A stretch of DNA of 64,000 nt from Chloroflexota bacterium. GTDB lineage: Bacteria; Chloroflexota; Anaerolineae; UBA4142. Below are positions 1 to 25,583 of this stretch, one piece after another (position 1 is the stretch's first letter; every line of letters begins with the position of its first letter). Below the pieces are notes generated by a model. The model was not told where the DNA came from and did not search any database. It saw only the letters and a list, made by a program, of their open reading frames with translations. Where the stretch lies: assembly GCA_016219275.1 (NCBI GenBank), contig JACRBM010000032.1:28054-92053 (forward strand). The letters run 5' to 3'. Made by a program: the position numbers and the translations under genes.

Positions 1-154
1 GGCGTGCTTGACTTGCCACGTTGTTCACGGCACGAGCGCGGCGATGGGCACGTACTCAGGTGCAGTGCTACGACCCGGCGGTACAACGGCAATGGGTTCG
101 TCACTGCTCCGTCTCGACAACCGCGGCGTTTGCCAAGCTTGCCACAACAAGTAA
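1..154 (+). CDS. 3' end (start outside window) of a multiheme cytochrome c, paralog of the 1995..3038 product
   Basis: Frame 2 reads ACLTCHVVHGT...LLRLDNRGVCQACHNK, then TAA at 152-154. It has two CxxCH motifs. Its C-terminus aligns by eye with ...CLTCHRAHGT...LLRMDNRGVCENCHQK of ORF 1995..3038. It is missing from the ORF track because it has no start codon in the window. Confidence 0.6.
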   Translation, partial: ACLTCHVVHGTSAAMGTYSGAVLRPGGTTAMGSSLLRLDNRGVCQACHNK

Positions 155-177
155 GCCAAGCGTCGCACGCAAGGGAA

Positions 178-202
178 GGAGGGGAGGAAACATCTCCCCT
201 CC
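178..202 (+). other. GC-rich stem-loop between two cytochrome genes
   Basis: GGAGGGGA (178-185) pairs with TCCCCTCC (195-202) around a 9-nt loop. No U-tract follows, so it is only a weak terminator candidate. Confidence 0.3.
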
Positions 203-231
203 CAACCTGTATCCAATCCTGCACGCGCAAC

Positions 232-1515
232 ATGGGGAAACACATGTCTTTTCTTCCACGACTCACTTGGCATCGAACTGCAATTATTATTTTGGTTGCA
301 CTCTTAATCACATTGGCGCTGGTTGCCTGCGGTCCTCTGCCAATTCCGGTTGTTGCTACGCCGACGCCTGAACCGACGGCGACGCCGATTCCACCAACGC
401 CGACGCCGGTAATCCAAGTGCAAGTGGGACCGCGCGTGCCGCACGCCACCGAAGGACGCGGCGATTGTCTCGCGTGTCACTTGTCCATGTGGCCCATGCC
501 GGCGTCGCACGAAGGACGCGAAAATAAAACCTGCCTGGCGTGTCACATCGCGCAATCCGCGCAGATACCGGTGGTCGCGCACCGCGCCAAAGGGCGCGAA
601 ACGTGTTCCGCCTGCCACGCGCCAAACCAAATCGCGCCGCTTCCCGCCGATCACTCCGGACGTTCCGATAAAACGTGCGCGATGTGCCACAATAAAGTGA
701 TCGCGTCGGTACCGGCTGTGGCGCACGATACGCAAAGCAAAACGACTTGCTCAGCGTGCCACGCCAAGCCCGCCGCGGCTCCGATCTCCAGCGTCCCAGT
801 TCTGCCTGCCTCGCACAAGGAGCGCACCGACAAAATGTGTACGGCTTGTCACGAAGCAGCGCTAACGGTACCGCAAATCGGACACAAGACGCCCGGACGC
901 GAAAAATGCGATACCTGTCACGCGGCAAAAGCGATGTCGCCGCTGCCGTCATCGCACGGCCGGCGTTCGGAGCAAACATGCGCGATGTGCCACTCGCCCT
1001 CAACCGTTGCGATCCCCGCGATCGCGCACACCACCGGCGGAGTACGGAGAGCGTGTTCGGGTTGTCACACCGAGGGCAAGATGGCGAATGCCTTACCCGT
1101 TACGCACAAAGGTCGCGCCGATACGATGTGCCTGGCGTGTCACGATCCGATGGTCGTTAAACCGCCCGCGGTCGCGCACTTGGTCAAAGGTCACGAATCA
1201 TGCGCCGATTGTCACAGCGCTAAGGGAGTCGTGCTCTTGCCGGTCAGTCACAAGAATCGAACGGGCATTACCTGCGTGATCTGCCACGAATCAGAAATCG
1301 CGGTTCCATCAGCGCCGCATTCGGTCGCGGACAAACCGGGTTGTTCGGCATGTCACTCTGCCAAGGTGCTCAAGGTATTGCCGGTCACGCACGTCAAGCG
1401 CACCGATGCGATGTGTACGATGTGCCATTCGCCGATTGCCACGATGCCTGCCTTGATTCCGCACAAACTGGAAGGTCGCCAGGATTGCACGATGTGTCAC
1501 ACCGTGAAAAAGTAA
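232..1515 (+). CDS. 15-heme c-type cytochrome lipoprotein built from tandem heme-binding modules
   Basis: ORF track 4..1515. The first 76 codons overlap the upstream cytochrome 3' end and a hairpin, so I moved the start to ATG 232 (alternative ATG 244 after GGGGAA). Signal peptide with lipobox LALVAC. There are 15 CxxCH motifs, and each has a His 7 (once 8) residues before the first Cys. Confidence 0.85.
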   Translation: MGKHMSFLPRLTWHRTAIIILVALLITLALVACGPLPIPVVATPTPEPTATPIPPTPTPVIQVQVGPRVPHATEGRGDCLACHLSMWPMPASHEGRENKTCLACHIAQSAQIPVVAHRAKGRETCSACHAPNQIAPLPADHSGRSDKTCAMCHNKVIASVPAVAHDTQSKTTCSACHAKPAAAPISSVPVLPASHKERTDKMCTACHEAALTVPQIGHKTPGREKCDTCHAAKAMSPLPSSHGRRSEQTCAMCHSPSTVAIPAIAHTTGGVRRACSGCHTEGKMANALPVTHKGRADTMCLACHDPMVVKPPAVAHLVKGHESCADCHSAKGVVLLPVSHKNRTGITCVICHESEIAVPSAPHSVADKPGCSACHSAKVLKVLPVTHVKRTDAMCTMCHSPIATMPALIPHKLEGRQDCTMCHTVKK

Positions 1516-1545
1516 GCGTCAGGACCAGGTGGTCGAGTACGCATC

Positions 1546-1764
1546 GTGAAAGCAACATTCGAAAAAAAGTTAGGCATGTTGGTGCTCTGGGCTGGGTTGT
1601 CGTTTGCCGTGGTGTTGACCGCGTGTAAAACGGATGACATCCCATCGGTAGTTGAAATGCCGGCGGGCGCGGTTCGCACGTCGCTGGTTGATGCGCGTTC
1701 GGGGGGTGTTCGCGCATCGCCGGTTCCATCGGAGAACGGTGGACCATCCCATACCAATGGCTGA
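1546..1764 (+). CDS. small putative lipoprotein, unknown function
   Basis: GTG start. The N-terminus KKLGMLVLWAGLSFAVVLTAC looks like a lipoprotein signal (lipobox LTAC). No recognisable domain. Same strand as the flanking cytochrome genes. Confidence 0.4.
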   Translation: MKATFEKKLGMLVLWAGLSFAVVLTACKTDDIPSVVEMPAGAVRTSLVDARSGGVRASPVPSENGGPSHTNG

Positions 1765-1769
1765 GAGAA

Positions 1770-1982
1770 TTGGAACGAGCAACGGTCGAGATGCTAACGG
1801 GACTGGATCAGCGCGTGGATCATCTGCGAACGACGACGCGTGGCGCGGCGGCTCTCACGGAAACCTTGCTCTCCGCGCATCCGCATCTATCGGTGGAGCT
1901 GGAGCATTTGCGCGAGACGATTCGCGCGCTCGAAGATGGCTTGGCTGGCTTTCGATTGCCATCCGATCAAGAAGAAACGTAA
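1770..1982 (+). CDS. hypothetical small protein without signal peptide
   Basis: TTG start in the track (alternative ATG at 1791). Leu/Glu/Arg-rich composition with no motif. The coding call rests only on position and strand within the cluster. Confidence 0.3.
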   Translation: MERATVEMLTGLDQRVDHLRTTTRGAAALTETLLSAHPHLSVELEHLRETIRALEDGLAGFRLPSDQEET

Positions 1983-1994
1983 ACGAGGGAGACG

Positions 1995-3038
1995 ATGAAG
2001 TTTTCTAACGCAGTTTTCTTCCCAGTCGTGTTAGCTGTTCTATTTCTAGTCGTCGTTGGACTCGGCGTATCGCCGGTCACATTTGCCAACGGCGGACCGC
2101 ACGGAAATTATAGTCCGACGACGGACGCCTGCGCCGGTTGTCATCGCGCGCACAGCGCGGGCGCGAGCCGGTTGTTGATTACGCAAGTACCCGGTCTGTG
2201 TTTCACGTGTCACGGCAACACGAGCAGCGGCGCGTTGACGAATGTGCAAGATGGAATCTTCAACGGCGGCGGCGGTAGTTTGCTCGGCGGTGGTTTTACA
2301 AATTATCAGGCAAGGTCGGTAACTTCGTCCCACGGCGTAGACGGAACGTACCGCAACGCGTGGGGCAGCGGTACCACTTGGACCAGTACGTACGATTGCG
2401 CCGGCTGCCACAACGACGAATCCGGTTTGGTATGGCCCGGCGCGCCGCAATGGGGCATTAGCGCCAACGCGTGGGCAACCTTCCCCGGGCGTGGACAAAA
2501 CGTTACGATGCCGTTGACCTGCACCAGTTGCCACAATCCACACGGCGGACGCAATTATCGTTTGCTGCAACAACGTTTGCATCCTCCTAGCGCGCAACAA
2601 GAAGACCCGCCGGGCTATGTGTTGGTCACGTCGAATGAAACCGGCGGACAACGCCCGGATCAACTCGGTTATGTCGCCAACTACACCACGCCGCGCTATC
2701 GTTTGGGATTGGGCGATTGGTGCACGGGTTGTCATTTTACGTACCAACAACAAATCTCGGCGATGCCGTTCAACGCGGAAGATGGCAGAGGTCTGGTCAC
2801 CCGCTATCGCCACCGGATGAACATGACGCTGGGCGGTCTAACGACCACCTTGCCGCTCGAAGATCCGCTCGGCGATGGCGCGAACGCGAACGACCAGGTC
2901 TTTTGTTTGACGTGTCATCGCGCACATGGGACGAACGTTAACGCCAGCGGGTACGCCGCGAATGTGCAACCGACCAACAATAGTGCGTTGCTGCGAATGG
3001 ACAATCGCGGCGTGTGCGAAAACTGCCACCAGAAATAG
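1995..3038 (+). CDS. secreted heptaheme cytochrome c (doubled-CXXCH type)
   Basis: GAGGGAGA lies just upstream of the ATG. Hydrophobic N-terminal signal or anchor. Seven CxxCH motifs, including the paired TDACAGCHRAH...LCFTCHG arrangement. Confidence 0.85.
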   Translation: MKFSNAVFFPVVLAVLFLVVVGLGVSPVTFANGGPHGNYSPTTDACAGCHRAHSAGASRLLITQVPGLCFTCHGNTSSGALTNVQDGIFNGGGGSLLGGGFTNYQARSVTSSHGVDGTYRNAWGSGTTWTSTYDCAGCHNDESGLVWPGAPQWGISANAWATFPGRGQNVTMPLTCTSCHNPHGGRNYRLLQQRLHPPSAQQEDPPGYVLVTSNETGGQRPDQLGYVANYTTPRYRLGLGDWCTGCHFTYQQQISAMPFNAEDGRGLVTRYRHRMNMTLGGLTTTLPLEDPLGDGANANDQVFCLTCHRAHGTNVNASGYAANVQPTNNSALLRMDNRGVCENCHQK

Positions 3039-3050
3039 AAAAGAGCCAGA

Positions 3051-3401
3051 GTGAATCGCGCAGAAACTCGCGTTGCGATAATCCTGGGACTGGGGTTGCT
3101 GATCGTTTTCTTCTTCGTCGTTGCCTGGGTGGGCGCGCACATGTTCTTCACGCCGAATGAACCCGCGCGCGCCCAGTCAAATATAGCAACGCCGACGCCC
3201 GCGCCGGTTTCTGCGTCTCCGTCCGCGCCGGTTCCCGCCGCCACACACCCAAGCGTTCCGCGCGACACGACGCCGCGCCGGGCAACCGTGAGTGCGACCT
3301 CGGCGCGCAATGCAATTCAACTTCCAGCCGGCCATCCGGGGGTAGATGGATCTCAACCCTGCGAATCGTGCCACACGAATTTGCGCGGCAAGGGAAAATA
3401 G
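3051..3401 (+). CDS. membrane-anchored monoheme cytochrome c with Pro/Thr/Ala linker
   Basis: GTG start. One N-terminal TM helix (VAIILGLGLLIVFFFVVAWVGA), a PT-rich spacer, and a single CESCH motif near the C-terminus. Confidence 0.6.
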   Translation: MNRAETRVAIILGLGLLIVFFFVVAWVGAHMFFTPNEPARAQSNIATPTPAPVSASPSAPVPAATHPSVPRDTTPRRATVSATSARNAIQLPAGHPGVDGSQPCESCHTNLRGKGK

Positions 3402-3422
3402 CGCGACTAGATTGAGCGTACC

Positions 3423-5993
3423 GTGTCAGAAATCATCCAGCCCAACGATAATCTAGGAATGCCCGAACGATTGATCGAACCCGAGCGGAATCGCGCGTCG
3501 CGCCAACGCCTGATCCCGCTCGTTGGTTGGATCGTTTTTGTCGTTCTGATGATTGCGGTTTCTTTTGTCTGCCCTGGTTCTGCCAATGGCGCGCCCGGCA
3601 CGGTTGGATCGAACACGGCGACGAACACACGCGTCGCGTCGGCGACTGCGACGAATTCACGCGCGCCAACGCTCACCGCCACCGCGACGCAAGCGCCAAC
3701 ACTCACGCGCACATCCACCGCGTCGCCGACCGTCGCGCCCAAAGCGCAACCCAGCGCGACGATGACAAATTCGCTCACCCGTTCGCCGACCGCATCGGCA
3801 ACGGCGCTGATAACCGCTCCCCCCAGTTCGACCTGGACGCGCACCGCGACGCGCATACCCACCGCGCCATCATCGGCAACGCCCAGCGCCGCGCCAACGC
3901 CATCTGCCAGCCCAACCCGATTGCCAACCGCAGGGCTAACGGCATCGGCAACCACCACAAAAACGCGAACGCGCACGGCAACTGCGACGAATACGATCAC
4001 GCGCACGGCTACGCTGACGACCACGGTGTCGCCAACGGCAACGCGAACAATCACCGCAACTGCCACGGTGTCGCCAACCGCGACGCGAACGACAACCGTG
4101 ACTACTACCCTGTCGCCAACCGCGACACAAACCATAACCGCGACTGTCACGGCGTCGCCAACTGCAACGCCAACCGCAACGCGAACCATTACCGCGACGG
4201 CTACGCTTTCGGCGACGACAACCCTCACTGCGACGATAGCAATCACGCCAATCGTCACTCCCCCACCGTGGAACAACAGCGCCGGCATTCTTGCGCCGAT
4301 GGGTTTGTGGGGCACGGCTCAAACGCAAACCAACTGCTCGCTGGCGAACACGAACAACAGCATTGACATGGCGTTCAACAACGCGTACGCGACCTGCGCG
4401 GTTGCCACCGGACAAACGACCGGCGACTGGACGATTAGCGCGATCAGCGACGTTCCTTTTTCAACGATCGGTTCGCCGGTGACACTGGATGCCAAGTTCT
4501 ATGTTGTCGGCGCGCATACCGACGACACCGTAGTACTCCAAGTGAACAACGGCACGACTTGGACGACGCTCGAAACGTTTAACGCGGGCAGCCGTCTGCC
4601 GACCGCTGTGGTCACGCGCACGTATTCGGTCTCGACGCAGTTCACCAACCAGACCCAGGTCAATGCCGCGCAGATGCGTTTCAGTTGGGCGCGCGTGGGG
4701 GGCATGACGGATGCGATTACGTATTATTTGGACGAAGTGCGCTTGAATGTACCGAACTCTGCCCAGCCCACGCCGGTTCTACCGGCGCGCGCAGCGACCA
4801 AGGTTCCGATCACGAACGATCCGCATGTTGCCTACACGCCGACGACGGACAGTTGCGCCGGTTGTCATCGTTCGCATACGGGTAGTGGGACGGTGGTGCG
4901 TCGGGCGTGGCACGAGGAGAATGTTTGTTTTACTTGCCACACGAGCATTGGCAACGGGACGTACGTTCAACCCGCGTTCACGAGTTACGCGAACACGACG
5001 ACGAGTTTCTTCAAACATGAAATTGCCGGCACGAGCGGAATTCATCGCGTTGGGGAAACGGGCGGCGCGGTGTTTGGCGGCGCGAATCGCCATATTGAAT
5101 GTGAGGATTGCCATCAACCGCACGATGCCACGCGCGATTCAATCGCCGGGGCGACTCAAGCGCCGATGATTCAACCGGAGATGTACGCCGTGTCTGGCGT
5201 TGACCCGACCTGGACTGCAACCGGCGCGCCGTTCGCATTTACTTGGATGGCGCAAGCGCAACGCGATTATCAAGTCTGCTTCAAGTGCCATTCGAGTTAC
5301 ACCATGTTGCCGACCTATCAACCCGATGGCTGGAATGGCGCGGCATACACCACGAACGGCTTGCGGAAACTCACGAGCGCGAATACACGGCAAGTCTTGG
5401 ATAGTCGCGATCTCGCGCAGATGCTCAATCCTTACAATGCGAGTTTCCATCCGGTTGTCGCGCCGGGCAAGAATTCATCTGCGCCTGCCGGAGGATTTGT
5501 TACGGGGTGGTCGGCAACGAGCATGGTGTACTGCACGGATTGTCACACCAATGCGACGCCGGCGACCGGCGCGAGTGGTCCGCACGGTTCACCACGGCTG
5601 CATCTGCTCGACGGCGCGAACAACTATAGCACAGTGGATTCGAATGGAGCGAACGCGCTCGGCGCGGGCGAGGTGTGTTTCAAATGCCACAAGAGTAGTG
5701 CCTATGCGCCCGCGAACAATCAAGAAGCCACTAACACGCGTTTCCGTTTGGGAACGCAGACGAATCTGCACCAAGTACACGCGGGGTCTGGTGGCGCGCG
5801 CGCACCATGCTATGTTTGCCACAACTCGCACGGGAGCGAGCAGTTGCGGTTAATCAATTTTGATTTGGCGGTGGTGACACCCAATACCGGATTCAATTCC
5901 CAATCGGCGTGGTACTGGGATGGCACGACTGGAACGTGCTATATCAGTTGTCACGGCGCGAATCATGGCATCGGCTATTCCTACACGCCCTAG
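3423..5993 (+). CDS. anchored multiheme cytochrome c with a long Thr-rich stalk and a beta-rich (possibly CBM-like) middle domain
   Basis: GTG start and an N-terminal TM helix. About 220 aa are Thr/Ala/Pro/Ser low-complexity. A ~170 aa non-heme domain follows, then 7 CxxCH plus one CYISCH (CX3CH). The first pair, TDSCAGCHRSH...VCFTCH, matches the 1995..3038 family. Confidence 0.85.
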   Translation: MSEIIQPNDNLGMPERLIEPERNRASRQRLIPLVGWIVFVVLMIAVSFVCPGSANGAPGTVGSNTATNTRVASATATNSRAPTLTATATQAPTLTRTSTASPTVAPKAQPSATMTNSLTRSPTASATALITAPPSSTWTRTATRIPTAPSSATPSAAPTPSASPTRLPTAGLTASATTTKTRTRTATATNTITRTATLTTTVSPTATRTITATATVSPTATRTTTVTTTLSPTATQTITATVTASPTATPTATRTITATATLSATTTLTATIAITPIVTPPPWNNSAGILAPMGLWGTAQTQTNCSLANTNNSIDMAFNNAYATCAVATGQTTGDWTISAISDVPFSTIGSPVTLDAKFYVVGAHTDDTVVLQVNNGTTWTTLETFNAGSRLPTAVVTRTYSVSTQFTNQTQVNAAQMRFSWARVGGMTDAITYYLDEVRLNVPNSAQPTPVLPARAATKVPITNDPHVAYTPTTDSCAGCHRSHTGSGTVVRRAWHEENVCFTCHTSIGNGTYVQPAFTSYANTTTSFFKHEIAGTSGIHRVGETGGAVFGGANRHIECEDCHQPHDATRDSIAGATQAPMIQPEMYAVSGVDPTWTATGAPFAFTWMAQAQRDYQVCFKCHSSYTMLPTYQPDGWNGAAYTTNGLRKLTSANTRQVLDSRDLAQMLNPYNASFHPVVAPGKNSSAPAGGFVTGWSATSMVYCTDCHTNATPATGASGPHGSPRLHLLDGANNYSTVDSNGANALGAGEVCFKCHKSSAYAPANNQEATNTRFRLGTQTNLHQVHAGSGGARAPCYVCHNSHGSEQLRLINFDLAVVTPNTGFNSQSAWYWDGTTGTCYISCHGANHGIGYSYTP
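3594..4263 (+). repeat. coding low-complexity region with imperfect ~42-nt tandem repeats (SPTATRTITATATV-like units)
   Basis: Protein residues ~58-280 of ORF 3423..5993. Repeated units are visible: TVSPTATRTITATA / TVSPTATRTTTVTT / TLSPTATQTITATV / TASPTATPTATRTITATA. The antisense frame gives an artefactual VAVAV ORF (3407..4315). Confidence 0.8.
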
Positions 5994-8157: not shown

Positions 8158-9483
8158 TTACACATCGGTCGCGAGGTCGAATGTTTGCGGCGTCGTCAGA
8201 TCCACTTTTAGTTCACGAATCACTGCGCCATCTGGTCGCGCTTCCATGACGCTCGTCGCGATGCCGATTTCGATGGCGAGGTCTTTCAGCGCGGCAATTT
8301 TCTCGACGTGAAACTCGAGATAGTACCGATCGCGGTTGCGTTGAAAATCGCGGTAACGCATTCGCTCGAAAATCGGCAAGACTTGATGGAGGTCTTTGCC
8401 GAACACCTTTGCCGATTTGAGAAAATAATCGCGCGGCGAAAAATAAAGATGCGCCGGAATCTTTTGTTCGAAATGCTGTTGATAGACTTGACCGGTATGT
8501 TTGTTTTCGAGCGAGCAATAGTGAACACCCAGTTTCAATTTCTGGTCGAGCGCAAACTCGACGAGATCGAGACACGCGGACTCGCTTTGCGCGACCGGCA
8601 ATCCGCCGGCGTAACTGTAATTGTACAACACGCGAAATGGGCGTTGCTTGATGCGATAGCCTTTGTCGCGATACATGTCGGCGTTGTTCAACGGAAAACA
8701 AAATTCCAATAGGTTGATGCCGGACACATCTAGTTCATCGAGTCGCGTCAACACCTGCTTCATCTCCGGCAATGTGCCGGGCAACACCGGCATCTCGACC
8801 ATCACGTTGGGAATGTATGCTTTGGTCAGCGCGATGCGGTCGTACGTGTGTCGCCGCGCTTGCTCGGAATCATACAGGCGGATGCTGAAACGAATCTCGT
8901 CGAGGCGTGCGCGTTGCAGCGCGGTCAAAAGTTCGACGTCAATATGGTCGCCGGACGTGTAGAGGCGTTTGTACGCGTGCGGAAATTTTTCGTTGGCGTA
9001 ATTGAAAAACTCGACTACCTCGGCGCGATGTAAGAGCGGCTCGCCGCCGGTAAGCGCGAGGTGTTCCAGGCGCGCGCCGCTTTGATAAATCTCTTCCAGC
9101 TCGCGAACGCAATTGCGTTTCTGCGTTTGGAACTCGGCGTAATTTTCCTGATTCGGGTTAAAGCAGAAAAAACAATTGCGATGGCACTTGAGCGAGATGA
9201 AAAACGTCGCCGTTCCCAGACCGGTCTGACACGCCGCACACGCGGGAGAAATGTGGTTTACGTAGATGCTCTTGTCGTCGTTGCGGAGAACCGCGCCCTT
9301 GCTCACCACGTTCGCAATCTTGGTTTGCGCCTCGGCGCGATCATCGCGCGGATCAAATTCCACTCCCAGCGCGCGGATGCGCGCAAAAAAATCCTGTTGG
9401 ATCTTGGCGTAGATCGCCGCGTAGTTTGCCAGATGGAGATTCTTGATTTGCGCGATGTTGTCGCGAGTAATTTCGACAATCAT
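8158..9483 (-). CDS. radical SAM protein with ~120 aa N-terminal extension
   Basis: CHRNCFFC is a CX3CX2C motif, followed by a GGEPLL glycine-rich motif. I moved the start to ATG 9483, which overlaps the upstream stop as ATGA. The longer track ORF (to 9606) would overlap the preceding gene. Confidence 0.75.
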   Translation of the reverse strand: MIVEITRDNIAQIKNLHLANYAAIYAKIQQDFFARIRALGVEFDPRDDRAEAQTKIANVVSKGAVLRNDDKSIYVNHISPACAACQTGLGTATFFISLKCHRNCFFCFNPNQENYAEFQTQKRNCVRELEEIYQSGARLEHLALTGGEPLLHRAEVVEFFNYANEKFPHAYKRLYTSGDHIDVELLTALQRARLDEIRFSIRLYDSEQARRHTYDRIALTKAYIPNVMVEMPVLPGTLPEMKQVLTRLDELDVSGINLLEFCFPLNNADMYRDKGYRIKQRPFRVLYNYSYAGGLPVAQSESACLDLVEFALDQKLKLGVHYCSLENKHTGQVYQQHFEQKIPAHLYFSPRDYFLKSAKVFGKDLHQVLPIFERMRYRDFQRNRDRYYLEFHVEKIAALKDLAIEIGIATSVMEARPDGAVIRELKVDLTTPQTFDLATDV

Positions 9484-10643
9484 GATTGCCCCTCGTGCGC
9501 GGTATGCGGGCGCAGACTGCCGAACGGATTGCGTCGGCGGAAATCGCAGATCGGGCAGAGAGTACCCGGAATGTGGTCGGCGAAGAGCGCGTTGCATTTC
9601 GCGCATTGTTTGAGCGCGCCGGCTTTCAAAACCATCGCTTCTGCCGCGACCAGTTCCGCGATGCTCGGCGCGCCATTGCGATGCAACGCTTGCGGTTCAC
9701 ACACATCGAGGCACACACCGCAGTCTGTGCATTTCGCAACCGCACAGGTCAGTCGGTACGCGTTGCCTTCGGTTGTTGAAAATTGCAACGCGCCGGTCGG
9801 ACATGCGCGCGCACAAACGCCGCACGCGGTACATTGATCATCGGCAGTCAGGCGAATCACGCCGGTAAATTGCGCGGGGACATTTTGCTCGCCGAGCGCG
9901 AGTTGCTTGAGCGCATTGATCAAGCGGACACGCTCGCGCGGCAAGACACTGCCCGCTGGCGCATCAGCGCTTTCGTTGGCGAACGCGCGCACGGCTGTGC
10001 GGACTGATTCGCCGGTCAACACGCGCAAGAAATCGCGCCGCGAGACGGGCGGCGCTTTGGCGTCGTACACGACGCGCGTTTTCGCATCGGTGCTGGGTCG
10101 GTCAGTCACGGCAATGACGCGTTCGGGAAATAATTGGCGAACGGGCGCGAGCGCGTTCACAATTTCCGGTTGCACGCGTCCGATAGAACATTCTTCACAC
10201 GCATCCATCCGAATGGCGACCTGGGAAACCTGGGTAAGCAAGCGCAGATACGTCGAAGACCCGAGCGCGGCGAGACAGGCGCTGGTACGAATAACCGTCG
10301 CGTTTTCGATCAATCCTTTTTCCGGCGCGGGATGACGCGCGCAGACAAGTTCGACGACCTGGGTCGCGGACAGACGCGCAATGCAATTGAAAATGTCCGC
10401 CGCGCTATCGTCGCCGGCGAATGCGCCGACCGGACACACGCGCAAACACAAGCCGCACGCGACGCACGCTTTTTCGTCGAGCGCGATCGGCGCATCCAAA
10501 CGCAACGCGTTGACAGGGCAACCGCGCACGCACAATTCGCACGTCGAGCGTTTATCTTTCGCGCGCACACACCGCGTCGCCTCGAGCGAGACCGGCGGTT
10601 GATCCGCCGGCGCGAGTTTGCCGGCGACTGAAAAAAGGTTCAC
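9480..10643 (-). CDS. cytoplasmic poly-ferredoxin-like protein (several 4Fe-4S motifs plus C-terminal Cys4 ribbon)
   Basis: Motifs CELCVRGCP, CVACGLCLRVCP, CTACGVCARACP, CTDCGVCLDVCEP and terminal CAKC...CPIC. No signal peptide. The GTG start overlaps the TorD-like stop (GTGA). Confidence 0.75.
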   Translation of the reverse strand: MNLFSVAGKLAPADQPPVSLEATRCVRAKDKRSTCELCVRGCPVNALRLDAPIALDEKACVACGLCLRVCPVGAFAGDDSAADIFNCIARLSATQVVELVCARHPAPEKGLIENATVIRTSACLAALGSSTYLRLLTQVSQVAIRMDACEECSIGRVQPEIVNALAPVRQLFPERVIAVTDRPSTDAKTRVVYDAKAPPVSRRDFLRVLTGESVRTAVRAFANESADAPAGSVLPRERVRLINALKQLALGEQNVPAQFTGVIRLTADDQCTACGVCARACPTGALQFSTTEGNAYRLTCAVAKCTDCGVCLDVCEPQALHRNGAPSIAELVAAEAMVLKAGALKQCAKCNALFADHIPGTLCPICDFRRRNPFGSLRPHTAHEGQS

Positions 10644-11314
10644 GCCTTCGTTCCTACGGGGATTTTCACATCCAGTATCGTGGCGGCTTCGCGGACGGCT
10701 CCACGCGTGAGGAGCGCGATGCCGCGATAAAAATCGGTGTGCGACTGCGCGTGAACCTGCTCACACCAGCCGAATGCCCAGCGCAACAAATGCTCAACCA
10801 TGAAGCGTTTCTGCGCGTCGAGCGTCTCTTCGAACTTGGCTTTGTCATTCTGTTCGAGCGCGCGCAGACCCAGTTTGGCAAGGTGCGCGATGAATTCGAG
10901 TTCGAGTCCGATGTGATCGTCCGGCTCTTGGTAAATTTTTTCGGCTTGGAGTCCAAAACGCCGGTACCACTCGCGCACCTTGAGCGTTTCTTCTTGAAAC
11001 GTCAAACGCTCTTCGCTAAAGTACACGGATTGCCACGGCGGCGTCAACACTTTGCCGGGTCCGATGAACAACCGCGTGTAATCCATGCGGACATCCTCAA
11101 GCGCTTCGTCCGATATGCCGCGACTCCACGCTTGCAATAATTCGAGCGCGGATTCCACCTCGGCTTGGTTGGATGCAAACGGCGCTTCGGAAAAAATATC
11201 GCCCTCCACCAGAGACTGCAACCACGTCTTTTCCGGATACACGTAGAATGCTTTACTGAGCAATCCAAAGGTCAACATTTCGCCGGTCAAGAGTTCGTTC
11301 CAATTCGATTCCAT
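10640..11314 (-). CDS. TorD/DmsD-family redox-enzyme maturation chaperone
   Basis: YTRLFIGPG...PPWQSVY...EPDDHIGLELEFIAHL is the family signature. I moved the start to ATG 11314 (MESNWNELL). The track ORF to 11500 would overlap the upstream gene. Confidence 0.8.
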   Translation of the reverse strand: MESNWNELLTGEMLTFGLLSKAFYVYPEKTWLQSLVEGDIFSEAPFASNQAEVESALELLQAWSRGISDEALEDVRMDYTRLFIGPGKVLTPPWQSVYFSEERLTFQEETLKVREWYRRFGLQAEKIYQEPDDHIGLELEFIAHLAKLGLRALEQNDKAKFEETLDAQKRFMVEHLLRWAFGWCEQVHAQSHTDFYRGIALLTRGAVREAATILDVKIPVGTKA

Positions 11315-11417: not shown

Positions 11418-13274
11418 TTAGTTTTCGCGTGGGCGACGTCGTCGCCACCACCAGATGATAGCCCAGAGAGGTGACAAGCCAAGTACCAAGATGATGACAA
11501 AATAGGTTACAAATGTGGTCACTTGCGCGATGCTAATGCCCATTTGCGCGAGTTGGTCCCGCAGGCGCGCATCGAGATTCGATTCCCACATCGGCGTGAT
11601 GGGTGAGGCGCTCGTTGGATGCAGCGCCGCGATCACAACCGCGTCGAGCGGGACGGGCGTCAAGCGTCCTGGATTTGACAGCACGAGCATCTCACCGCCG
11701 CGCACTAACGTTTCGCCGCGCGACGAACGAACGTTTGCAACGCCATCCATCAAATACAACCACACCGGACGATCCGGAAAATATTCGAGCGCGAATTGAC
11801 CGGCAGGCAACGTGATGGTCGCGTCCGCCACGCGAATCGTCACAGCCGAATCTCCGCCATTGCCCCATAGCCAACCGTACTCGAGCGCGATAGTTTGTTT
11901 TTCGACGCGAACCTGGGATTCGGGCGGCGCAACGATTTCGCCATTGCCCCACGCGATAGATTGTGTTTCCGGTCGTCGTGTCAACGTGAAATCGGCGACG
12001 CTGTTCGCGGCGGCATCAACGACTTGCGCTTGGTAGAAATAGCCGGGAGCGGATGCGACCAGCGTCAACGACTCGCGCGGTACATCGTCGAGCGTGTACG
12101 CGCCGGTGCTTGGCAGCGCATTCTGCACGATGCCGGTTTTTTCGCGCGTCACCCACGCGAATGGCAGAGGCGCGTTTTTTGAATCGCGCAGTGTTCCGCT
12201 CAGGGTCTTACCGCGTTGTGTCGCGACGAGCGGCAAGGTCATTGAAATCGCGGGCGAAGATTCGAGGTCAATCGTTTGTGGCGTGGATGCGAATCCGTGC
12301 TCGGCGAGCGCGCGGTCATCCGCGAGAACCAGGTATTGTCCAATCGGCACATTGACAAACGCGAACGTGCCATTCGATGTTATCTGCGTGGTATAGCTCG
12401 CGCCATCGGACAATCGAATCGCGCGAACCGCGACGGGTTTGATCGCGACATTGACGTTGCCGGTAATTTCACCGGTGCGACTGCGCACGCGTACTGTGAT
12501 CGGCGCATTCGTCGTCGCGCCCGGCGCGAGCGTCACCGTGATCGGCGCAACACTTTCGAACCACACGCCATCCACGACCGTTGGCTCGACGCGAAACGAA
12601 TATTGCGTCGGCGTTTGGCTCAGCGCTTCGACACGCAACTGCGCCTGACCATTCGCATCCGAGATGCCGGTATAGTGTCGCGTGCGCCACATGTAGAGAC
12701 GCGTGGAACCGTTCACTAGGATATTGGGCACTGGTTGTTGTGGGTTATCCGCGCGCACGACCTTGACCGGCACTGTTGCATAGCCGGAACGATCCACGAC
12801 AATATGTCGTTCAGCCGTCGCTTGCTTGCCATTTGGTTCCAGCGCGGTGATGCGGAGCGTTACCTTACCACGCGGCAAGATCACATTCGCCAAATAGTGG
12901 CACGCGTCACAGTTCCGTTGGTCGGGCGAAAATTCGCCGGCGGACGAATCCGCGTTGACCGTCATCCCAAACGAGAACGCGCCATCGTCGCGTAAACGCG
13001 CGGTCGTGGTCTGCGCCACTAGATTCCCGACCAGCACATCGAGCCGCACACGCACGAGGGAGGGTTCGGGATTACTCGTTACGACCCAGCCCGCGATGTC
13101 AATGCTGTACACCAACGAATAGGGTCCCGCGTAAAATGTCTCATTTTCAAGCGGAGTCGAGATGGTTACAGAAAGCGAGGATGATTGCGCGTTGGCTGGA
13201 TTGCCCGCGCACACAAATAATCCCAGCACAACCACAAGCAACCCAACCAGTTTGAACCAACGCCATGTCGTCAT
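11418..13274 (-). CDS. large secreted, C-terminally anchored protein: Ig-like domain with one CxxCH, CarboxypepD_reg-like repeats, possible FecR-like domain
   Basis: Start ATG 13274 overlaps the upstream stop (ATGA). N-terminal signal (WFKLVGLLVVVLGLFVCAG). CDACH heme motif. Repeats of the G.V.D..G.P...A.V...G.Y.L..L..G.Y type. C-terminal TM helix plus WWWRRRRP tail. Paralog of 22688..24538. Confidence 0.7.
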   Translation of the reverse strand: MTTWRWFKLVGLLVVVLGLFVCAGNPANAQSSSLSVTISTPLENETFYAGPYSLVYSIDIAGWVVTSNPEPSLVRVRLDVLVGNLVAQTTTARLRDDGAFSFGMTVNADSSAGEFSPDQRNCDACHYLANVILPRGKVTLRITALEPNGKQATAERHIVVDRSGYATVPVKVVRADNPQQPVPNILVNGSTRLYMWRTRHYTGISDANGQAQLRVEALSQTPTQYSFRVEPTVVDGVWFESVAPITVTLAPGATTNAPITVRVRSRTGEITGNVNVAIKPVAVRAIRLSDGASYTTQITSNGTFAFVNVPIGQYLVLADDRALAEHGFASTPQTIDLESSPAISMTLPLVATQRGKTLSGTLRDSKNAPLPFAWVTREKTGIVQNALPSTGAYTLDDVPRESLTLVASAPGYFYQAQVVDAAANSVADFTLTRRPETQSIAWGNGEIVAPPESQVRVEKQTIALEYGWLWGNGGDSAVTIRVADATITLPAGQFALEYFPDRPVWLYLMDGVANVRSSRGETLVRGGEMLVLSNPGRLTPVPLDAVVIAALHPTSASPITPMWESNLDARLRDQLAQMGISIAQVTTFVTYFVIILVLGLSPLWAIIWWWRRRRPREN

Positions 13275-14119
13275 CGCGTCGTGCTCTCGACGGTCTTGAG
13301 TCCCCAGGGGTTGTTTGGCGCGTGGCATTTGTTGCAATTGACCGCGCGTTGAATGCTGTGTGATTTGTACACCGCCGTGGTCGAGCGTCCCATCAATTCG
13401 GTTGTGCGGAATGTCATCCAGGTATCTTTGCCTTTTTCGATGCCCACTTTCATCCCCGCCGCATCGTGACACGCGATACACGATACGGTCGTGTGCGTCT
13501 TGTCGTGACCAAGGATCGGCTTGGCGGGATCGAGCGCGTTCGGGTGGCACGCTTGAGCCGAGCAACTCGCAATGGTGGAGTGCGCGTCATGGCAACGCGT
13601 ACAGGCGTAATCCTTGTGCGCGCTCTGCGACACATCGCGCTTGTGCCGAATCGTTTCGGTGTCGGTGTGACATTTTTCGCATAACGCCGTCGCGTTCGCG
13701 ACCGATTCGTACTGTCCGTTTGCGTTGTTGAGCCACGCGATTTGCGAACTGGTTACTCCGTTCGCAGTCGTGTGGCACACTTCGCAACCGATGTCTTTCC
13801 AATCCGCTTTAGCGACCGGCGGATTGCCTTTCGCGATCCGCATTGCAGGATCGAACGAGAATTTGCACGAGACGCAGTTGGGTTGCGGATCAATCTTTGC
13901 CGCGGGATCCCAGTTGCGCGGCGAGTGGCAACGCGCGCAGTACGTGTTCGGTCCCTTGCCTGGGTCGAACGTGTTGGCGTGCGGACTCTTTTGCCACGCT
14001 TGGCGAATGAGAGACGTGTCCGGTGTGGGCGCGGATGCCGGTGTGGGGGGGACTTGCTGGCACGCGGCGAGGACGAATGCGAAAACGATACTGAAAAACA
14101 ATCCCAGGATTCGATTCAT
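13271..14119 (-). CDS. multiheme cytochrome c lipoprotein (6 CxxCH, one CX4CH, one CxxCK)
   Basis: Lipobox VLAAC. Motifs CARCH, CEVCH, CEKCH, CTRCH, CIACH, CNKCH, plus CSAQACH and CVSCK. Paralog of 24548..25537. Confidence 0.85.
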   Translation of the reverse strand: MNRILGLFFSIVFAFVLAACQQVPPTPASAPTPDTSLIRQAWQKSPHANTFDPGKGPNTYCARCHSPRNWDPAAKIDPQPNCVSCKFSFDPAMRIAKGNPPVAKADWKDIGCEVCHTTANGVTSSQIAWLNNANGQYESVANATALCEKCHTDTETIRHKRDVSQSAHKDYACTRCHDAHSTIASCSAQACHPNALDPAKPILGHDKTHTTVSCIACHDAAGMKVGIEKGKDTWMTFRTTELMGRSTTAVYKSHSIQRAVNCNKCHAPNNPWGLKTVESTTR

Positions 14120-14131
14120 TTGGTTGATATA

Positions 14132-14158
14132 GTAGGGGCGGGGTTATCCCGCCCCTAC
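14132..14158 (-). repeat. intercistronic GC stem-loop (GTAGGGGCGGG family) after dmsC copy 1
   Basis: GTAGGGGCGGG / CCCGCCCCTAC, 11-bp stem with a 5-nt loop, in the 44-nt spacer between dmsC-1 and the cytochrome gene. No U-tract. Confidence 0.7.
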
Positions 14159-22544: not shown

Positions 22545-22590
22545 TCGCAACAAAAACCCTGTCACGGCGCGAGACGCGCCGTTGACAGGG
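22545..22590 (-). terminator. intrinsic-terminator-like hairpin inside the dmsA-2 leader (attenuator candidate)
   Basis: Minus strand: CCCTGTCAACGGCGCG-TCTC-CGCGCCGTGACAGGG followed by TTTTTGTT, about 25 nt before the dmsA-2 RBS. It has the same architecture as 34053-34098, with compensatory stem changes. Confidence 0.6.
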
Positions 22591-22634: not shown

Positions 22635-22688
22635 TCAGGATACGGCAAAGTCAGTTTGAGCGCATCTCTCTTTGGAGTAATTTGGCAT
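22635..22688 (-). CDS. candidate 17-codon leader peptide (uORF) MPNYSKERCAQTDFAVS
   Basis: The ATG overlaps the TGA of the upstream gene (TGATG). The stop TGA lies in the 5' arm of a hairpin. A same-length counterpart, MPDYSKERCARHHFSVF, lies at 34141-34194. Confidence 0.35.
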   Translation of the reverse strand: MPNYSKERCAQTDFAVS

Positions 22689-22704
22689 CACCCGGTTGGG
22701 TGAT
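22687..22704. repeat. copy 2 of palindrome ATCACCC-GGTT-GGGTGAT
   Basis: Identical to copy 3. It encodes the last residues (NHPTG stop) of ORF 22688..24538 and contains the uORF ATG. Confidence 0.75.
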
Positions 22705-24538
22705 TTTGGCGGTTTGCGCGCGACCACATCGCCCAAATCAAGAGCGGCGCGCCTAGAATTGCCAGAGTGATGAATCCGTACGTCGTGAACGTGACGAGTT
22801 GCGCCACACTGATGCCGAACAGCACTACCCCGTCGCGCACTTGGGTGCTGAGAGTTGGCTCGGTCACAAATTCGGAAGGATCGCTGAACGTTCCGGTAAG
22901 TGCGCGGATAGCGAGGGGCTCGATCGCAACTGCACGCAGATTTTCAAAATGCGAATCAATCACCAGCATGTGCCCGGCATTCACGGTTGTTTGGCGCGAT
23001 GAATCGAGCGCCACGTTCGCGTTGCCTTCCATCACGTACAACCACGCGCGCTCGGCTTGTCGTTCGATGGCAACGCGCGCATTCTCGAACGTGATGGTCG
23101 CGCCAGCGGTTTCGATGGAAAACGCGCCGGTGCCCTTGCCCCACATCCAACCGTGCGTCAAAACCAGATGACCGCCGACCGATTCGGTGAGTGTTTCCGG
23201 TGGCAACATCGTCAAGCCGTTGCCCCACGCGATTTGGCGCAATTCGTTACGCGGCGCAAGCGTGATGGACACTGCCGCATCATTTTTGATCGCGATGCTC
23301 TGGCTCCAAAATCCCGGCGCAATCACGCGCAGCGTTTGCGCGTTTGCCGGAACATCGTACAACACAAACTCGCCGGTCGCAGGATTGGTTCGCGTGCCGC
23401 CGGATGCTCCATCTAACGCGACCCAGCCGAACGGTACTGGCTCGCCGTTGCTAGCGCGAATCGTTCCGTGCACCACGCGCGGCGAGGCAACATTCGCAGT
23501 TAACGCGACCGTGGCTTGCGCCGATGACGCGATGGATAAATCAATCTGGGACGCATTGGCTTGGAGCGAGCGCGGCGCGAGTTCGGCCGGGTCGAGCGCG
23601 ACGAGATAGCGCGCAACCGGCAATTCGGAAAATGCAAATGCACCCTCGCGCGCTTGCGCGACAAAACTCGCGCCGGTTTGCCCGTCAATCGCGCGAACCG
23701 TCAATACCGAATCTCCGACGCCGCGAATCGTTCCGGTGATTTGACCGCGCCGCGCGCGCACCGGCAAGGTCAACATTTCGCCGAACGCTTGTCCGGGTTT
23801 CAAAGTCGTTTGTTTCGATTCGACGCTTTCGTACAATACGCCATTGACCACGACCGGCGGTACGGTAAAAATGTAACGCGTCGAAGATTGCGCGAGCGCT
23901 TCAACTTGGACGCGCGCGTGACCAGTCGTATCGGTCGTTGCCGTACTCGTTCGGGCGCGCCACAGGTACATTCGCGCGGAACCCAGGACTGGGATATTCG
24001 GAATCGTCTGCTCAGGATGATCCGCGTCGACGACCTTGACTGGAATGATCGCGCTGCCCGAATGATCCACGATGATGGTCCGCTCGGCGACGGCTTGGTT
24101 GCCCGCGGGGTCGGTCGCGGTGACGCGCACAAGCACTTTGCCGCGCGGCAAGGCAATCGGCGACGTGAAATGACACTCGATGCATCCAGTGTGCGGATCA
24201 GGAAAATCAGCGCCAGCCGGATTCGCGGTCACAGAGAAAGAGAAGGAGCCATCGGGGTTCGCGCGCGATTTAAGATTCGCGGTCAGTTCCGTTCCGCGCA
24301 ACAAATCCAATTGGAGTTTGATCAGACTAGGTTCGGGATTGCTCGTGACGATCCAACCGTTGATGTAAATGCTGTACAAAAACGCACTGGGCGAAACGTA
24401 AACTGTTTCGCCCTGAGCAGGAGTCGCGATCACAACCGCGAGACGGCTAGATTGCGCGTGGGCTGATCGAGTCCCCAAAAAGAAAAGCGCGGCGACCAGC
24501 GCCATTCGCAGAATCCAAAAATTTTTCGAAGAGAGCAT
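22688..24538 (-). CDS. paralog of 11418..13274: secreted, C-terminally anchored CarboxypepD_reg-like protein with one CxxCH
   Basis: Signal peptide (ALVAALFFLGTRSAHA). CIECH motif at the position equivalent to CDACH. Collinear with its paralog (…WIVTSNPEPSLIKLQLDLL… vs …WVVTSNPEPSLVRVRLDVL…). C-terminal TM helix. Confidence 0.7.
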   Translation of the reverse strand: MLSSKNFWILRMALVAALFFLGTRSAHAQSSRLAVVIATPAQGETVYVSPSAFLYSIYINGWIVTSNPEPSLIKLQLDLLRGTELTANLKSRANPDGSFSFSVTANPAGADFPDPHTGCIECHFTSPIALPRGKVLVRVTATDPAGNQAVAERTIIVDHSGSAIIPVKVVDADHPEQTIPNIPVLGSARMYLWRARTSTATTDTTGHARVQVEALAQSSTRYIFTVPPVVVNGVLYESVESKQTTLKPGQAFGEMLTLPVRARRGQITGTIRGVGDSVLTVRAIDGQTGASFVAQAREGAFAFSELPVARYLVALDPAELAPRSLQANASQIDLSIASSAQATVALTANVASPRVVHGTIRASNGEPVPFGWVALDGASGGTRTNPATGEFVLYDVPANAQTLRVIAPGFWSQSIAIKNDAAVSITLAPRNELRQIAWGNGLTMLPPETLTESVGGHLVLTHGWMWGKGTGAFSIETAGATITFENARVAIERQAERAWLYVMEGNANVALDSSRQTTVNAGHMLVIDSHFENLRAVAIEPLAIRALTGTFSDPSEFVTEPTLSTQVRDGVVLFGISVAQLVTFTTYGFITLAILGAPLLIWAMWSRANRQNHPTG

Positions 24539-24547
24539 CCGGTCAAC

Positions 24548-25537
24548 CTAACGCTTCGGCGTCGGTGTTGGATTCGGGTCTGGGTTGCGTGGAAAGTTGG
24601 TGCACCAAAAGAGCGACGCGCCTTCTGCGTGGCACACATCGCATCCAATTTGCGATGCGACGACCGTTCTCAATGTACCTTGGGGATGATGACAGCGTTC
24701 GCAATCTACTTCCAATTGCAAATTGTGCGAGGGCCACGAAGTTAACGTGTGCGCAAAGCGGAGTGTGATGTACGTGTTCAAGTGACGCGCGGCAATCCGT
24801 GAGGGCGCCTCGGTTTCAAATCCGACACTCAACCCGCCCGCGTCGTGACACGCCGTACAATTCACCTGCGGATGCTTGGCGTGTTCCGCCGCGCCGCGCC
24901 CTTTGGTCGGGTCGTGGCAATCCGCGCACTTGACCGGCGCGTTGTGCGCGCCGTGACATTGCGTACACGCCCAACCCTTGTGCGCCGGAGAAATTTTTTG
25001 TTCGGTCATTACTTCAAAGCCGTGGCGACCTTCGTGACAGTGCGCGCACAATTCATTCGCATCGTGAACGGCTTGGTACTGTTTCGTCTCATTGTTCCAA
25101 AACGACAGCGCGGTCGAATACGAATTGCCCACCGGTTGATGGCACACGTCGCAACCGATATTCTGCCATGCGCTCGTCGCCACCGGCACACCACCTTCGA
25201 GGTCAGGTCGCGGCGCGCCGGGCACGCGCTTGCACGCGCCGCAATCCAACGCCGATTGCGCCGCGGGCGCTTTGGCATCCCAGTTGAACGGCGACTTGCA
25301 CCGCGCACACGTGGTGTTCGCGCCCGCGCCGTTATCGAACGTACTCGCATGCCCAGATTGCGTCCAGTCCAGTTTCGCCTTGGCAACTTGAGCGGCGGTC
25401 GCCACGCGCCCGCTTGCTCGCGTTGGCGTTGGCGTCGTCCCAGATTGGCGTGGCGGCGCGGCGGAGACCTGGCTTGTGAGCGAGAACAAACCCAGGAGAA
25501 AGATTAAACCTAAAGCAAATGCAATTTTATTCGTCAT
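24548..25537 (-). CDS. multiheme cytochrome c (7 CxxCH, two CxxCK), paralog of 13271..14119
   Basis: I moved the start to ATG 25537 (MTNKIAFALGLIFLLGLF signal). Motifs CDVCH, CAHCH, CTQCH, CADCH, CTACH, CERCH, CDVCH, plus CARCK and CGACK. Confidence 0.85.
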   Translation of the reverse strand: MTNKIAFALGLIFLLGLFSLTSQVSAAPPRQSGTTPTPTRASGRVATAAQVAKAKLDWTQSGHASTFDNGAGANTTCARCKSPFNWDAKAPAAQSALDCGACKRVPGAPRPDLEGGVPVATSAWQNIGCDVCHQPVGNSYSTALSFWNNETKQYQAVHDANELCAHCHEGRHGFEVMTEQKISPAHKGWACTQCHGAHNAPVKCADCHDPTKGRGAAEHAKHPQVNCTACHDAGGLSVGFETEAPSRIAARHLNTYITLRFAHTLTSWPSHNLQLEVDCERCHHPQGTLRTVVASQIGCDVCHAEGASLFWCTNFPRNPDPNPTPTPKR

Positions 25538-25550
25538 AGATTTTAGACAT

Positions 25551-25578
25551 GTAGGGGCGTTCAACTGAACGCCCCTAC
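25551..25578 (-). repeat. intercistronic GC stem-loop after dmsC copy 3
   Basis: GTAGGGGCGTT / AACGCCCCTAC, 11-bp stem with a 6-nt loop, between dmsC-3 and the cytochrome gene. Confidence 0.7.
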
Positions 25579-25583
25579 AAGTT

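Follow-up and report, generated by a model that had tools for sequence, protein, structure and literature searches.

Why do genes for multiheme cytochromes lie within an array of genes for DmsABC-type reductases? This question is raised by a stretch of 64,000 nucleotides from a groundwater Chloroflexota bacterium of the class Anaerolineae (assembly GCA_016219275.1, contig JACRBM010000032.1, positions 28,054 to 92,053 of the forward strand), which is called the window hereafter. An earlier note on this DNA had pointed out two gene pairs in the array, each encoding a multiheme cytochrome and an anchored protein with one heme motif, and had proposed that they form an accessory module coupling Dms-type enzymes to extracytoplasmic electron transfer. 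Our analysis suggests that these genes probably, if by no means certainly, encode an exported heme relay that is physically tied to DmsABC-type reductases, whose partner and direction of electron flow we infer from sequence.

A cytochrome and stalk protein module in dms operons

Four intact open reading frames (ORFs), all on the minus strand, make up the two pairs. The first pair consists of cytA (24548-25537), which encodes an exported cytochrome of 329 amino acids (aa) with nine heme motifs, and BIG-A (22688-24538), which encodes a 616-aa stalk protein with one heme motif. The second consists of cytB (13271-14119), for a 282-aa lipoprotein cytochrome with eight heme motifs, and BIG-B (11418-13274), for a 618-aa paralog of BIG-A. 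These ORFs agree in place and size with the pairs that the earlier note had described at 22688-25537 and 11418-14119, and the overlap that it had read as ATGA was found at 13271-13274, where the stop codon of cytB meets the start codon of BIG-B. As assigned with the Pfam model for DmsC, cytA and BIG-A come after dmsC-3, and cytB and BIG-B come after dmsC-1.

A word-based protein search with BIG-A alone returned 14 relatives, which is an under-count, and hidden Markov model (HMM) scans and an exhaustive profile search were used instead. The scan of species-representative genomes with a cytochrome profile gave 65 loci, nearly all of them in Anaerolineae metagenome-assembled genomes (MAGs). The cytochrome profile has more than 500 homologues, and the exhaustive profile search yielded 303 BIG clusters (50% identity) at E≤1e-30. 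All relatives are from MAGs or metagenome contigs. Gene context was analyzed by HMM scans of all six-frame ORFs in loci with 10-kb flanks, which are numbered here from L001. The ORFs of three loci from long-read MAGs (L010, L029 and L041) are fragmented in a way that looks like sequencing error. Four other loci (L040, L062, L070 and L072) have Anaerolineae-type genes in bins labelled Desulfobacterales, Methanosarcinales or archaeon; these contigs are probably mis-binned.

Synteny with dms genes in other genomes, which had been set beforehand as the test by which the proposed module could be refuted, was found to hold. The core order, present in ~30 Anaerolineae species, is dmsA-dmsB-dmsC-cytA-cytB-BIG, followed by genes for a DmsD-like chaperone, a polyferredoxin and a radical SAM protein. 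Among the loci with an assessable upstream side, dmsC lies immediately 5' of the module in 34 of 38 (the exceptions are L004, L021, L036 and L041), which bears out the idea of a conserved accessory module of Dms-type operons. Because the module stands between the Dms structural genes and the gene for the DmsD-like chaperone, it lies inside the Dms unit. Furthermore, BIG is found after dmsC even in places without a cytochrome gene between them, as in the second copies of L001 and L010 and in L006, L068 and L071. The recurrent order upstream of the core is GAF kinase, lone DmsC paralog, NarL-type regulator and dmsA, and tatA and tatC are sometimes found after the radical SAM gene.

The lone DmsC paralog was examined in one of these loci (L014:1775-5478), where it is diverged, lies just upstream of dmsA and is flanked by the genes for a GAF/HisKA_3 histidine kinase and for a NarL-type response regulator. 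This layout is suggested in most canonical loci, and the paralog could be a quinone-sensing partner of the kinase.

The description of the window's two pairs as a duplicated module was only partly upheld. The pairs are homologous, with 37% identity between CytA and CytB (E 2e-42) and 41% identity between BIG-A and BIG-B over 587 residues (E 1e-136), but the duplication is not recent. The cytochromes belong to two distinct subfamilies, which are encoded next to each other in most genomes: type A proteins start with a Sec signal, carry CxxCK as both of their first two motifs and also have a ninth motif and a conserved WC..F.R tail, and type B proteins, which are usually lipoproteins, have CxxCH as the first motif and CxxCK as the second. 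In a maximum-likelihood tree, BIG-A and BIG-B fall in two deep halves of their family (99/98 support), each with orthologs from other MAGs, and a recent tandem duplication of the gene pair was ruled out by this tree. The term "duplicated" is misleading because the cytochromes represent two subfamilies and the BIG copies are old paralogs. The ancestral unit is the three genes cytA-cytB-BIG, of which the window holds a split version. Pairs of cytA with BIG and of cytB with BIG are spread over two operons in the window's lineage, in L001/L002, in L009/L042 and in L010/L012.

The cytochromes CytA and CytB

The nine heme motifs of CytA begin with CARCK (25295-25309) and CGACK (25229-25243) and continue with seven CxxCH motifs, and the eight of CytB are CARCH, CVSCK (13862-13876), five CxxCH and one CX4CH. 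The CxxCK motifs are present as had been claimed, namely at a matching position in both proteins (CVSCK/CGACK), with a further CARCK in CytA where CytB has CARCH. Both cytochromes had been called multiheme lipoproteins. This applies to CytB, the signal of which ends in a lipobox (..FVLAAC), but not to CytA, which has an ordinary Sec signal (..QVSA/APP) and no lipobox Cys, there being no Cys in or after the signal peptide; its C-terminal end is a Pro/Thr-rich tail. A four-Cys zinc ribbon was considered for the first two motifs (Pfam Zn_ribbon_4, E 0.028) and was rejected because the second Cys is invariably followed by His or Lys.

CytA matched the Pfam families Cytochrome_C7 and c3_2, and the matches over 106 members of the cytochrome family were to c7, c3, paired-CXXCH, c554, MtrC/MtrF domains II/IV and NrfB-like models. 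The affinities of the cytochromes are to wire-type families only. The NrfA family (Pfam Cytochrom_C552) matched none of the 106 members, and in NCBIfam no NrfA model matched and no family at all was found for CytA. CytB showed a match to the DmsE family model TIGR03508 that is far below its cut-off (E 2.9e-6, 26.9 bits versus 192.2), and CytA did not match this model. The best match among solved structures in the PDB profile search was the decaheme chain A of 6r2q (E 5e-5), which we take to be MtrA of the Shewanella MtrCAB complex; the other matches were weak and wire-type. A Foldseek search of the PDB with the AlphaFold model of CytA, which has a predicted local distance difference test score (pLDDT) of 81, gave nothing significant (the best was 4qo5 at E 2), and neither the PDB profile search nor Foldseek found relatives of NrfA, HAO or OTR.

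The CxxCK motifs had been compared with the lysine-ligated catalytic heme motif of NrfA, and they raise an alternative in which CytA, perhaps with CytB, is a new catalytic multiheme reductase for a small oxyanion or an N- or S-oxide, fed by the quinol-oxidizing DmsB/DmsC, much as NrfA and NrfB are fed by NrfCD in E. coli, and anchored by BIG. We consider this alternative unlikely. It does draw support from the conservation of the lysines: all Cys and His residues of eight motifs, together with Lys103, are invariant in the 106 cytochromes, and every one of the 78 type-A sequences has both Lys81 and Lys103. The comparison with NrfA therefore stands as far as the motif and its invariant lysines are concerned, but not as a sequence or fold relationship, of which the 106 members and the Foldseek search gave no sign. 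A further point in favor of catalysis is that motif 1 has His in type B and Lys in type A. A His/Lys exchange of this kind is also known at the catalytic heme of NrfA enzymes, and the alternation also fits what an axial ligand position would be expected to tolerate.

The potential heme ligands outside the motifs bear on this alternative in both directions. In CytB, ~6-7 distal His residues are conserved, which is fewer than its eight hemes and counts in favor of catalysis. In contrast, nine non-motif His residues are 100% conserved in the type-A sequences (63, 172, 186, 198, 219, 222, 263, 271 and 284), so that the nine motifs and nine spare His residues of CytA are consistent with nine six-coordinate hemes, and this count argues against an open catalytic site in the predicted protein. 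The lone Cys312 of CytA, which lies in the WC..F.R motif (residues 311-317, window 24587-24607), is found in 100% of type A and does not occur in type B. This residue may act as an unusual heme ligand, as the catalytic alternative would allow, or form a cross-link. Also against catalysis by the cytochromes, neither the scanned ORFs of the window nor the 10-kb flanks around the loci contained a dedicated heme-lyase gene for CxxCK. Finally, since the molybdenum subunit is never lost, a catalytic site is already present in the operon.

The catalytic alternative also gains from the way in which an iron-sulfur subunit, a membrane anchor and multiheme cytochromes mirror the NrfABCD system, one cytochrome of which, in E. 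coli, bears CxxCK. In E. coli NrfABCD, as here, two exported multiheme cytochromes are encoded along with an iron-sulfur subunit and an NrfD/DmsC-type, quinol-oxidizing anchor that lacks cofactors (PMC8076601). However, a molybdenum subunit (DmsA) is always present here, the cytochromes of the module are not NrfA homologues, and the module has two CxxCK motifs in one protein and an additional one-heme stalk protein, and it comes without dedicated heme-lyase genes in the regions scanned.

Tandem CxxCK cytochromes of the same superfamily were also seen in a different arrangement (L043-L067, e.g., L063:5711-8805 and L055:9845-12605), followed by a membrane protein of ~232 aa (P0135, P0136) that belongs to no Pfam family and for which about six membrane helices are predicted. 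This arrangement is widespread in Anaerolineae, BIG and dms genes are absent from it, and the ~232-aa protein may be the partner of the cytochrome pair.

The BIG stalk protein and its natural fusions

The AlphaFold model of BIG (pLDDT 89.7, predicted template modeling score 0.74) starts with a signal helix, which is followed by an Ig-like domain (~33-159) and four further beta-sandwich domains; after two short helices, it ends in a transmembrane helix (578-611) with a basic tail. The heme motif is CIECH in BIG-A (residues 119-123; 24170-24184), where the model places it in a long loop of the Ig-like domain, and CDACH in BIG-B (residues 122-126; 12897-12911). The signal peptide, the Ig-like domain with its single CxxCH and the C-terminal anchor, all of which had been described before, were recovered in both the sequence and the model. 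Because a basic tail follows the C-terminal membrane helix, the positive-inside rule places the bulk of BIG, as modeled, outside the cell.

Two other features that had been ascribed to this protein were less well supported. The CarboxypepD_reg-like domain is present, but as one copy per protein that reaches the Pfam threshold rather than as repeats: the match to PF13620 lies at about residues 356-430, with 32.3 bits in BIG-A (equal to the cut-off) and 46.9 bits in BIG-B, and the isolated middle part of BIG scored 38.9 bits. The supposed FecR-like segment was not found, as residues 430-560 of neither copy gave a match to FecR at E≤10; this region showed faint cupin-like matches (Cupin_2 and Cupin_3, E 0.025-0.06). 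A PDB profile search with BIG gave no match, and NCBIfam has no family for it. Foldseek searches with the model retrieved, with low TM-scores, stalks of Gram-positive pilins and adhesins and S-layer proteins, which share a generic tandem Ig-like architecture.

This likeness to pilin, adhesin and S-layer stalks raises the question of whether BIG is a redox protein at all, or rather a non-redox envelope, adhesion or scaffold protein in which Cys-x-x-Cys-His forms a metal or disulfide site. The motif is single and variable in spacing (among 82 representatives, CX2CH occurs in 36, CX3CH in 43 and CX4CH in 1), and no conserved sixth ligand is apparent except Tyr47, which, together with Glu44, is the sole other invariant polar residue of the heme domain. 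However, CX3CH and CX4CH are known heme c motifs and count as such here. Moreover, Cys122 and His123 are invariant in 43 sequences, of which at least 90% have the first Cys (Cys119), BIG is always encoded beside cytochromes or redox enzymes, and in the fusions described below it is joined to further heme motifs. In light of these findings we regard a non-redox BIG as very improbable, and the N-terminal domain is better described as carrying a c-type heme attachment motif, that is, a putative heme site.

In one protein, P0201 (907 aa; L074:597-3320), a type-B cytochrome is followed by a Pro/Ala-rich linker and then by the mature N-terminus of BIG. This is the sole fusion of its kind, and its gene has cytA and the gene for a DmsD-like chaperone as neighbors. 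The BIG signal peptide is missing and the linker stands in its place, which ruled out a frameshift artefact. By the Rosetta-stone argument, this fusion with an 8-heme cytochrome therefore suggests that CytB sits on the BIG heme domain. In addition, ~20 clusters of ~1000 aa (P0188-P0276) have an exported WD40 propeller and two extra CxxCH motifs N-terminal to BIG. The loci that encode them (e.g., L006:7443-10430, L068:11307-13565 and L071:15223-18297) have the fusion gene after dmsC and no separate cytochrome pair.

The Dms units and a proposed heme relay

The minus strand of the window carries four head-to-tail DmsABC-type units, as recognized by Pfam and NCBIfam domains. Two of them, dmsA-4/B-4/C-4 (34030-29896) and dmsA-3/B-3/C-3 (29818-25584), lie upstream of cytA and BIG-A, and the other two, dmsA-2/B-2/C-2 (22519-18349) and dmsA-1/B-1/C-1 (18349-14164), lie upstream of cytB and BIG-B. 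Because a terminator-like hairpin with a T-run (~22550-22590) between the BIG-A stop and the dmsA-2 start separates BIG-A from dmsA-2, the array reads as two operons, each containing two DmsABC units, one cytochrome gene and one BIG gene. Downstream of BIG-B, minus-strand genes for a DmsD/TorD-like chaperone (10640-11314), a polyferredoxin (9480-10643) and a radical SAM protein (8158-9606) represent the operon tail that is conserved after BIG (8158-11314). Beyond the end of the dms operon, at 1-5993 on the plus strand, is a cluster of MtrC/MtrF-like multiheme cytochromes (Pfam PF22113, paired CXXCH).

According to Pfam and NCBIfam, the DmsA copies have a Tat signal and iron-sulfur and molybdopterin domains, DmsB is a four-cluster ferredoxin, and DmsC is the membrane anchor. 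The DmsA copies scored 484-587 bits on TIGR02166, below the cut-off of 777, and for this reason they are DmsA-like proteins rather than equivalogs. Two residues of the E. coli quinol site, H65 and E87, aligned as conserved in DmsC-1, DmsC-2 and DmsC-3. With this quinol site kept in DmsC, and with the Tat signal and cofactor domains kept in DmsA, the Dms complexes should be able to oxidize menaquinol and reduce a soluble substrate on their own, and the cytochromes would therefore be an addition to the quinol input and not a replacement for it. Judging from their signals, the module proteins are exported to the side of the membrane that they share with the Tat-exported DmsAB.

The spacers between the Dms units and the module contain stem-loops. 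On the minus strand, a GC-rich stem-loop of 13 bp (25550-25579) lies between the dmsC-3 stop and the cytA start, and one of 12 bp (14132-14158) lies between the dmsC-1 stop and the cytB start. Both have the stem GTAGGGGCG, which does not recur in the rest of the window. In ~27 of 29 dms-linked loci (L001-L040), the corresponding spacer contains a strong stem-loop that is unrelated in sequence, with a U-tract after some of them. As a leaky terminator or as an element of mRNA stability, this stem-loop may control how much DmsABC is made relative to the accessory proteins.

The heme relay that we favor would be arranged as follows. CytA, CytB and BIG would be located on the outer face of the cytoplasmic membrane, beside DmsAB. 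BIG would act as a holder, anchored in the membrane by its C-terminal helix, and would present the Ig-like domain with one relay heme. CytB, as a membrane-proximal lipoprotein cytochrome with 8-10 hemes, would dock on the BIG heme domain, and CytA, as a distal cytochrome with nine hemes that may be soluble or wall-associated, would lengthen the chain. The resulting relay of ~18 hemes would exchange electrons with the iron-sulfur chain of the menaquinol-oxidizing DmsABC. In addition to the molybdenum site, the complex would thereby gain another point at which electrons can enter or leave, for example towards insoluble acceptors, wall-spanning cytochromes or other reductases. The CxxCK lysines would be axial ligands that tune heme potential and would not be catalytic. 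The genes with their conservation and order, the export signals, the heme motifs, the fusions, the predicted BIG fold and the intact quinol site of DmsC are the parts of this model that were shown, and we infer that the hemes are occupied, that a complex forms and touches DmsB or DmsA, and which way the electrons flow.

Several observations weigh against such a relay. In the NrfD-family review, DmsABC is described without further subunits and works without cytochromes (PMC8076601), in agreement with the earlier statement that classical DmsABC needs none. Two absolutely conserved lysines are more than a simple wire seems to need. Owing to the spacer stem-loop, the dmsC and cytA parts may be expressed at different levels or separately, and none of the RNA runs searched for the window genes or an ortholog holds them. 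Moreover, the module is found without dms genes within 10 kb in L036 and L004, the trio in L021 stands alone behind its own GAF kinase and NarL-type regulator, and in L003 (234-4836) a cytA-BIG pair is followed by genes for an RdhA reductive dehalogenase and a small anchor (rdhA-rdhB). Since this pair directly precedes rdhA-rdhB, the module may serve exported terminal reductases besides the Dms-type enzymes.

The loci without dms genes, and the one that adjoins rdhAB, bring up a further explanation, that the module is an autonomous extracytoplasmic conduit with its own quinol oxidase (e.g., for extracellular electron transfer), which is co-located and co-regulated with dms genes in an island of anaerobic respiration and exchanges no electrons directly with DmsAB. 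The separation of dmsC from cytA by a stem-loop or leaky terminator, the related CxxCK pairs that occur with the six-helix protein and no dms genes, and the separate MtrC/MtrF-like cluster of the window are all compatible with this explanation. Nevertheless, the module is sandwiched by dmsC and the Dms chaperone gene in ~30 species, and BIG follows dmsC even when cytochromes are missing. The MtrC/MtrF-like cluster is not kept beside the module in other loci, and no conserved neighboring candidate for a quinol oxidase was found except DmsC. We therefore give an autonomous conduit a low probability, and a relay that exchanges electrons with DmsABC remains our preferred reading.

A bolder proposal, which we consider improbable, is that CytA and CytB represent a new lysine-ligated multiheme class and, with BIG, make DmsABC a branched respiratory supercomplex, in which a single quinol-oxidizing anchor and iron-sulfur chain would supply not only the molybdenum site but also another outlet, based on heme and either catalytic or extracellular. 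Such a complex would be a monoderm hybrid of Nrf and Mtr principles, known so far from MAGs and metagenome contigs alone, most of them assigned to Anaerolineae.

We compared the module with further known systems that resemble it in part. Shewanella DmsEFAB is similar in that a DMSO (dimethyl sulfoxide) reductase-type enzyme is genetically coupled to a multiheme cytochrome, and there is the weak likeness to DmsE/MtrA. It had been called architecturally different, and this proved correct: the module keeps DmsC, its host is of the monoderm type, its anchor is a beta-sandwich stalk protein, and its cytochromes have 8-9 hemes and not 10 as in the decaheme DmsE. A gene for a beta-barrel porin (MtrB/DmsF) was found neither within nor beside the module, in the window or in the loci, where the neighboring genes are dmsC and BIG or the chaperone gene. 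The gamma subunits of the type II DMSO reductase family (EbdC, DdhC and SerC) are beta-sandwich proteins with a single heme b that pass electrons between the iron-sulfur subunit and outside carriers, and the BIG heme domain resembles them in its proposed role. However, BIG differs from them in its motifs for covalent heme c (CX2-4CH), its additional domains and its membrane helix, and no homology to these subunits was detected.

Two additional systems share other features with the module. Thermincola OcwA and its partners are exported multihemes in a cell without an outer-membrane porin route, and OcwA has nine hemes (PMC6703420), a number equal to that of the CytA motifs. No sequence or fold match to OcwA was detected, and, unlike OcwA, the module is embedded in dms operons and includes BIG. 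In Qrc and alternative complex III, multihemes are stably attached to a complex of the complex iron-sulfur molybdoenzyme (CISM) type (PMC8076601), but the molybdopterin-like subunit of those complexes is cofactor-less, whereas the DmsA copies here keep the Tat signal and the iron-sulfur domain, and the cytochromes are unrelated. As each known family fails at least one of the features tested, we regard the module as a cytochrome accessory of a CISM respiratory complex and its proteins as representatives of families in which no member has been described. The literature on Chloroflexi reports many multiheme cytochromes and, separately, dmsABC genes, and no description of the module was found in it.

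Groundwater, sediments and wastewater sludge all harbor abundant Anaerolineae, which have many multiheme cytochromes without known roles. The module represents a concrete and widespread link between these cytochromes and a defined respiratory enzyme. For heme-ligand chemistry, useful test cases are its two conserved CxxCK motifs, the CX3CH heme motif within an Ig-like fold and the conserved lone cysteine. The natural fusions indicate which of the proteins to co-express. If the relay does exchange electrons with DmsABC, this would be the first DmsC-anchored molybdoenzyme with cytochrome subunits, and it would provide a route that links quinol oxidation to partners beyond the membrane in cells without an outer membrane.

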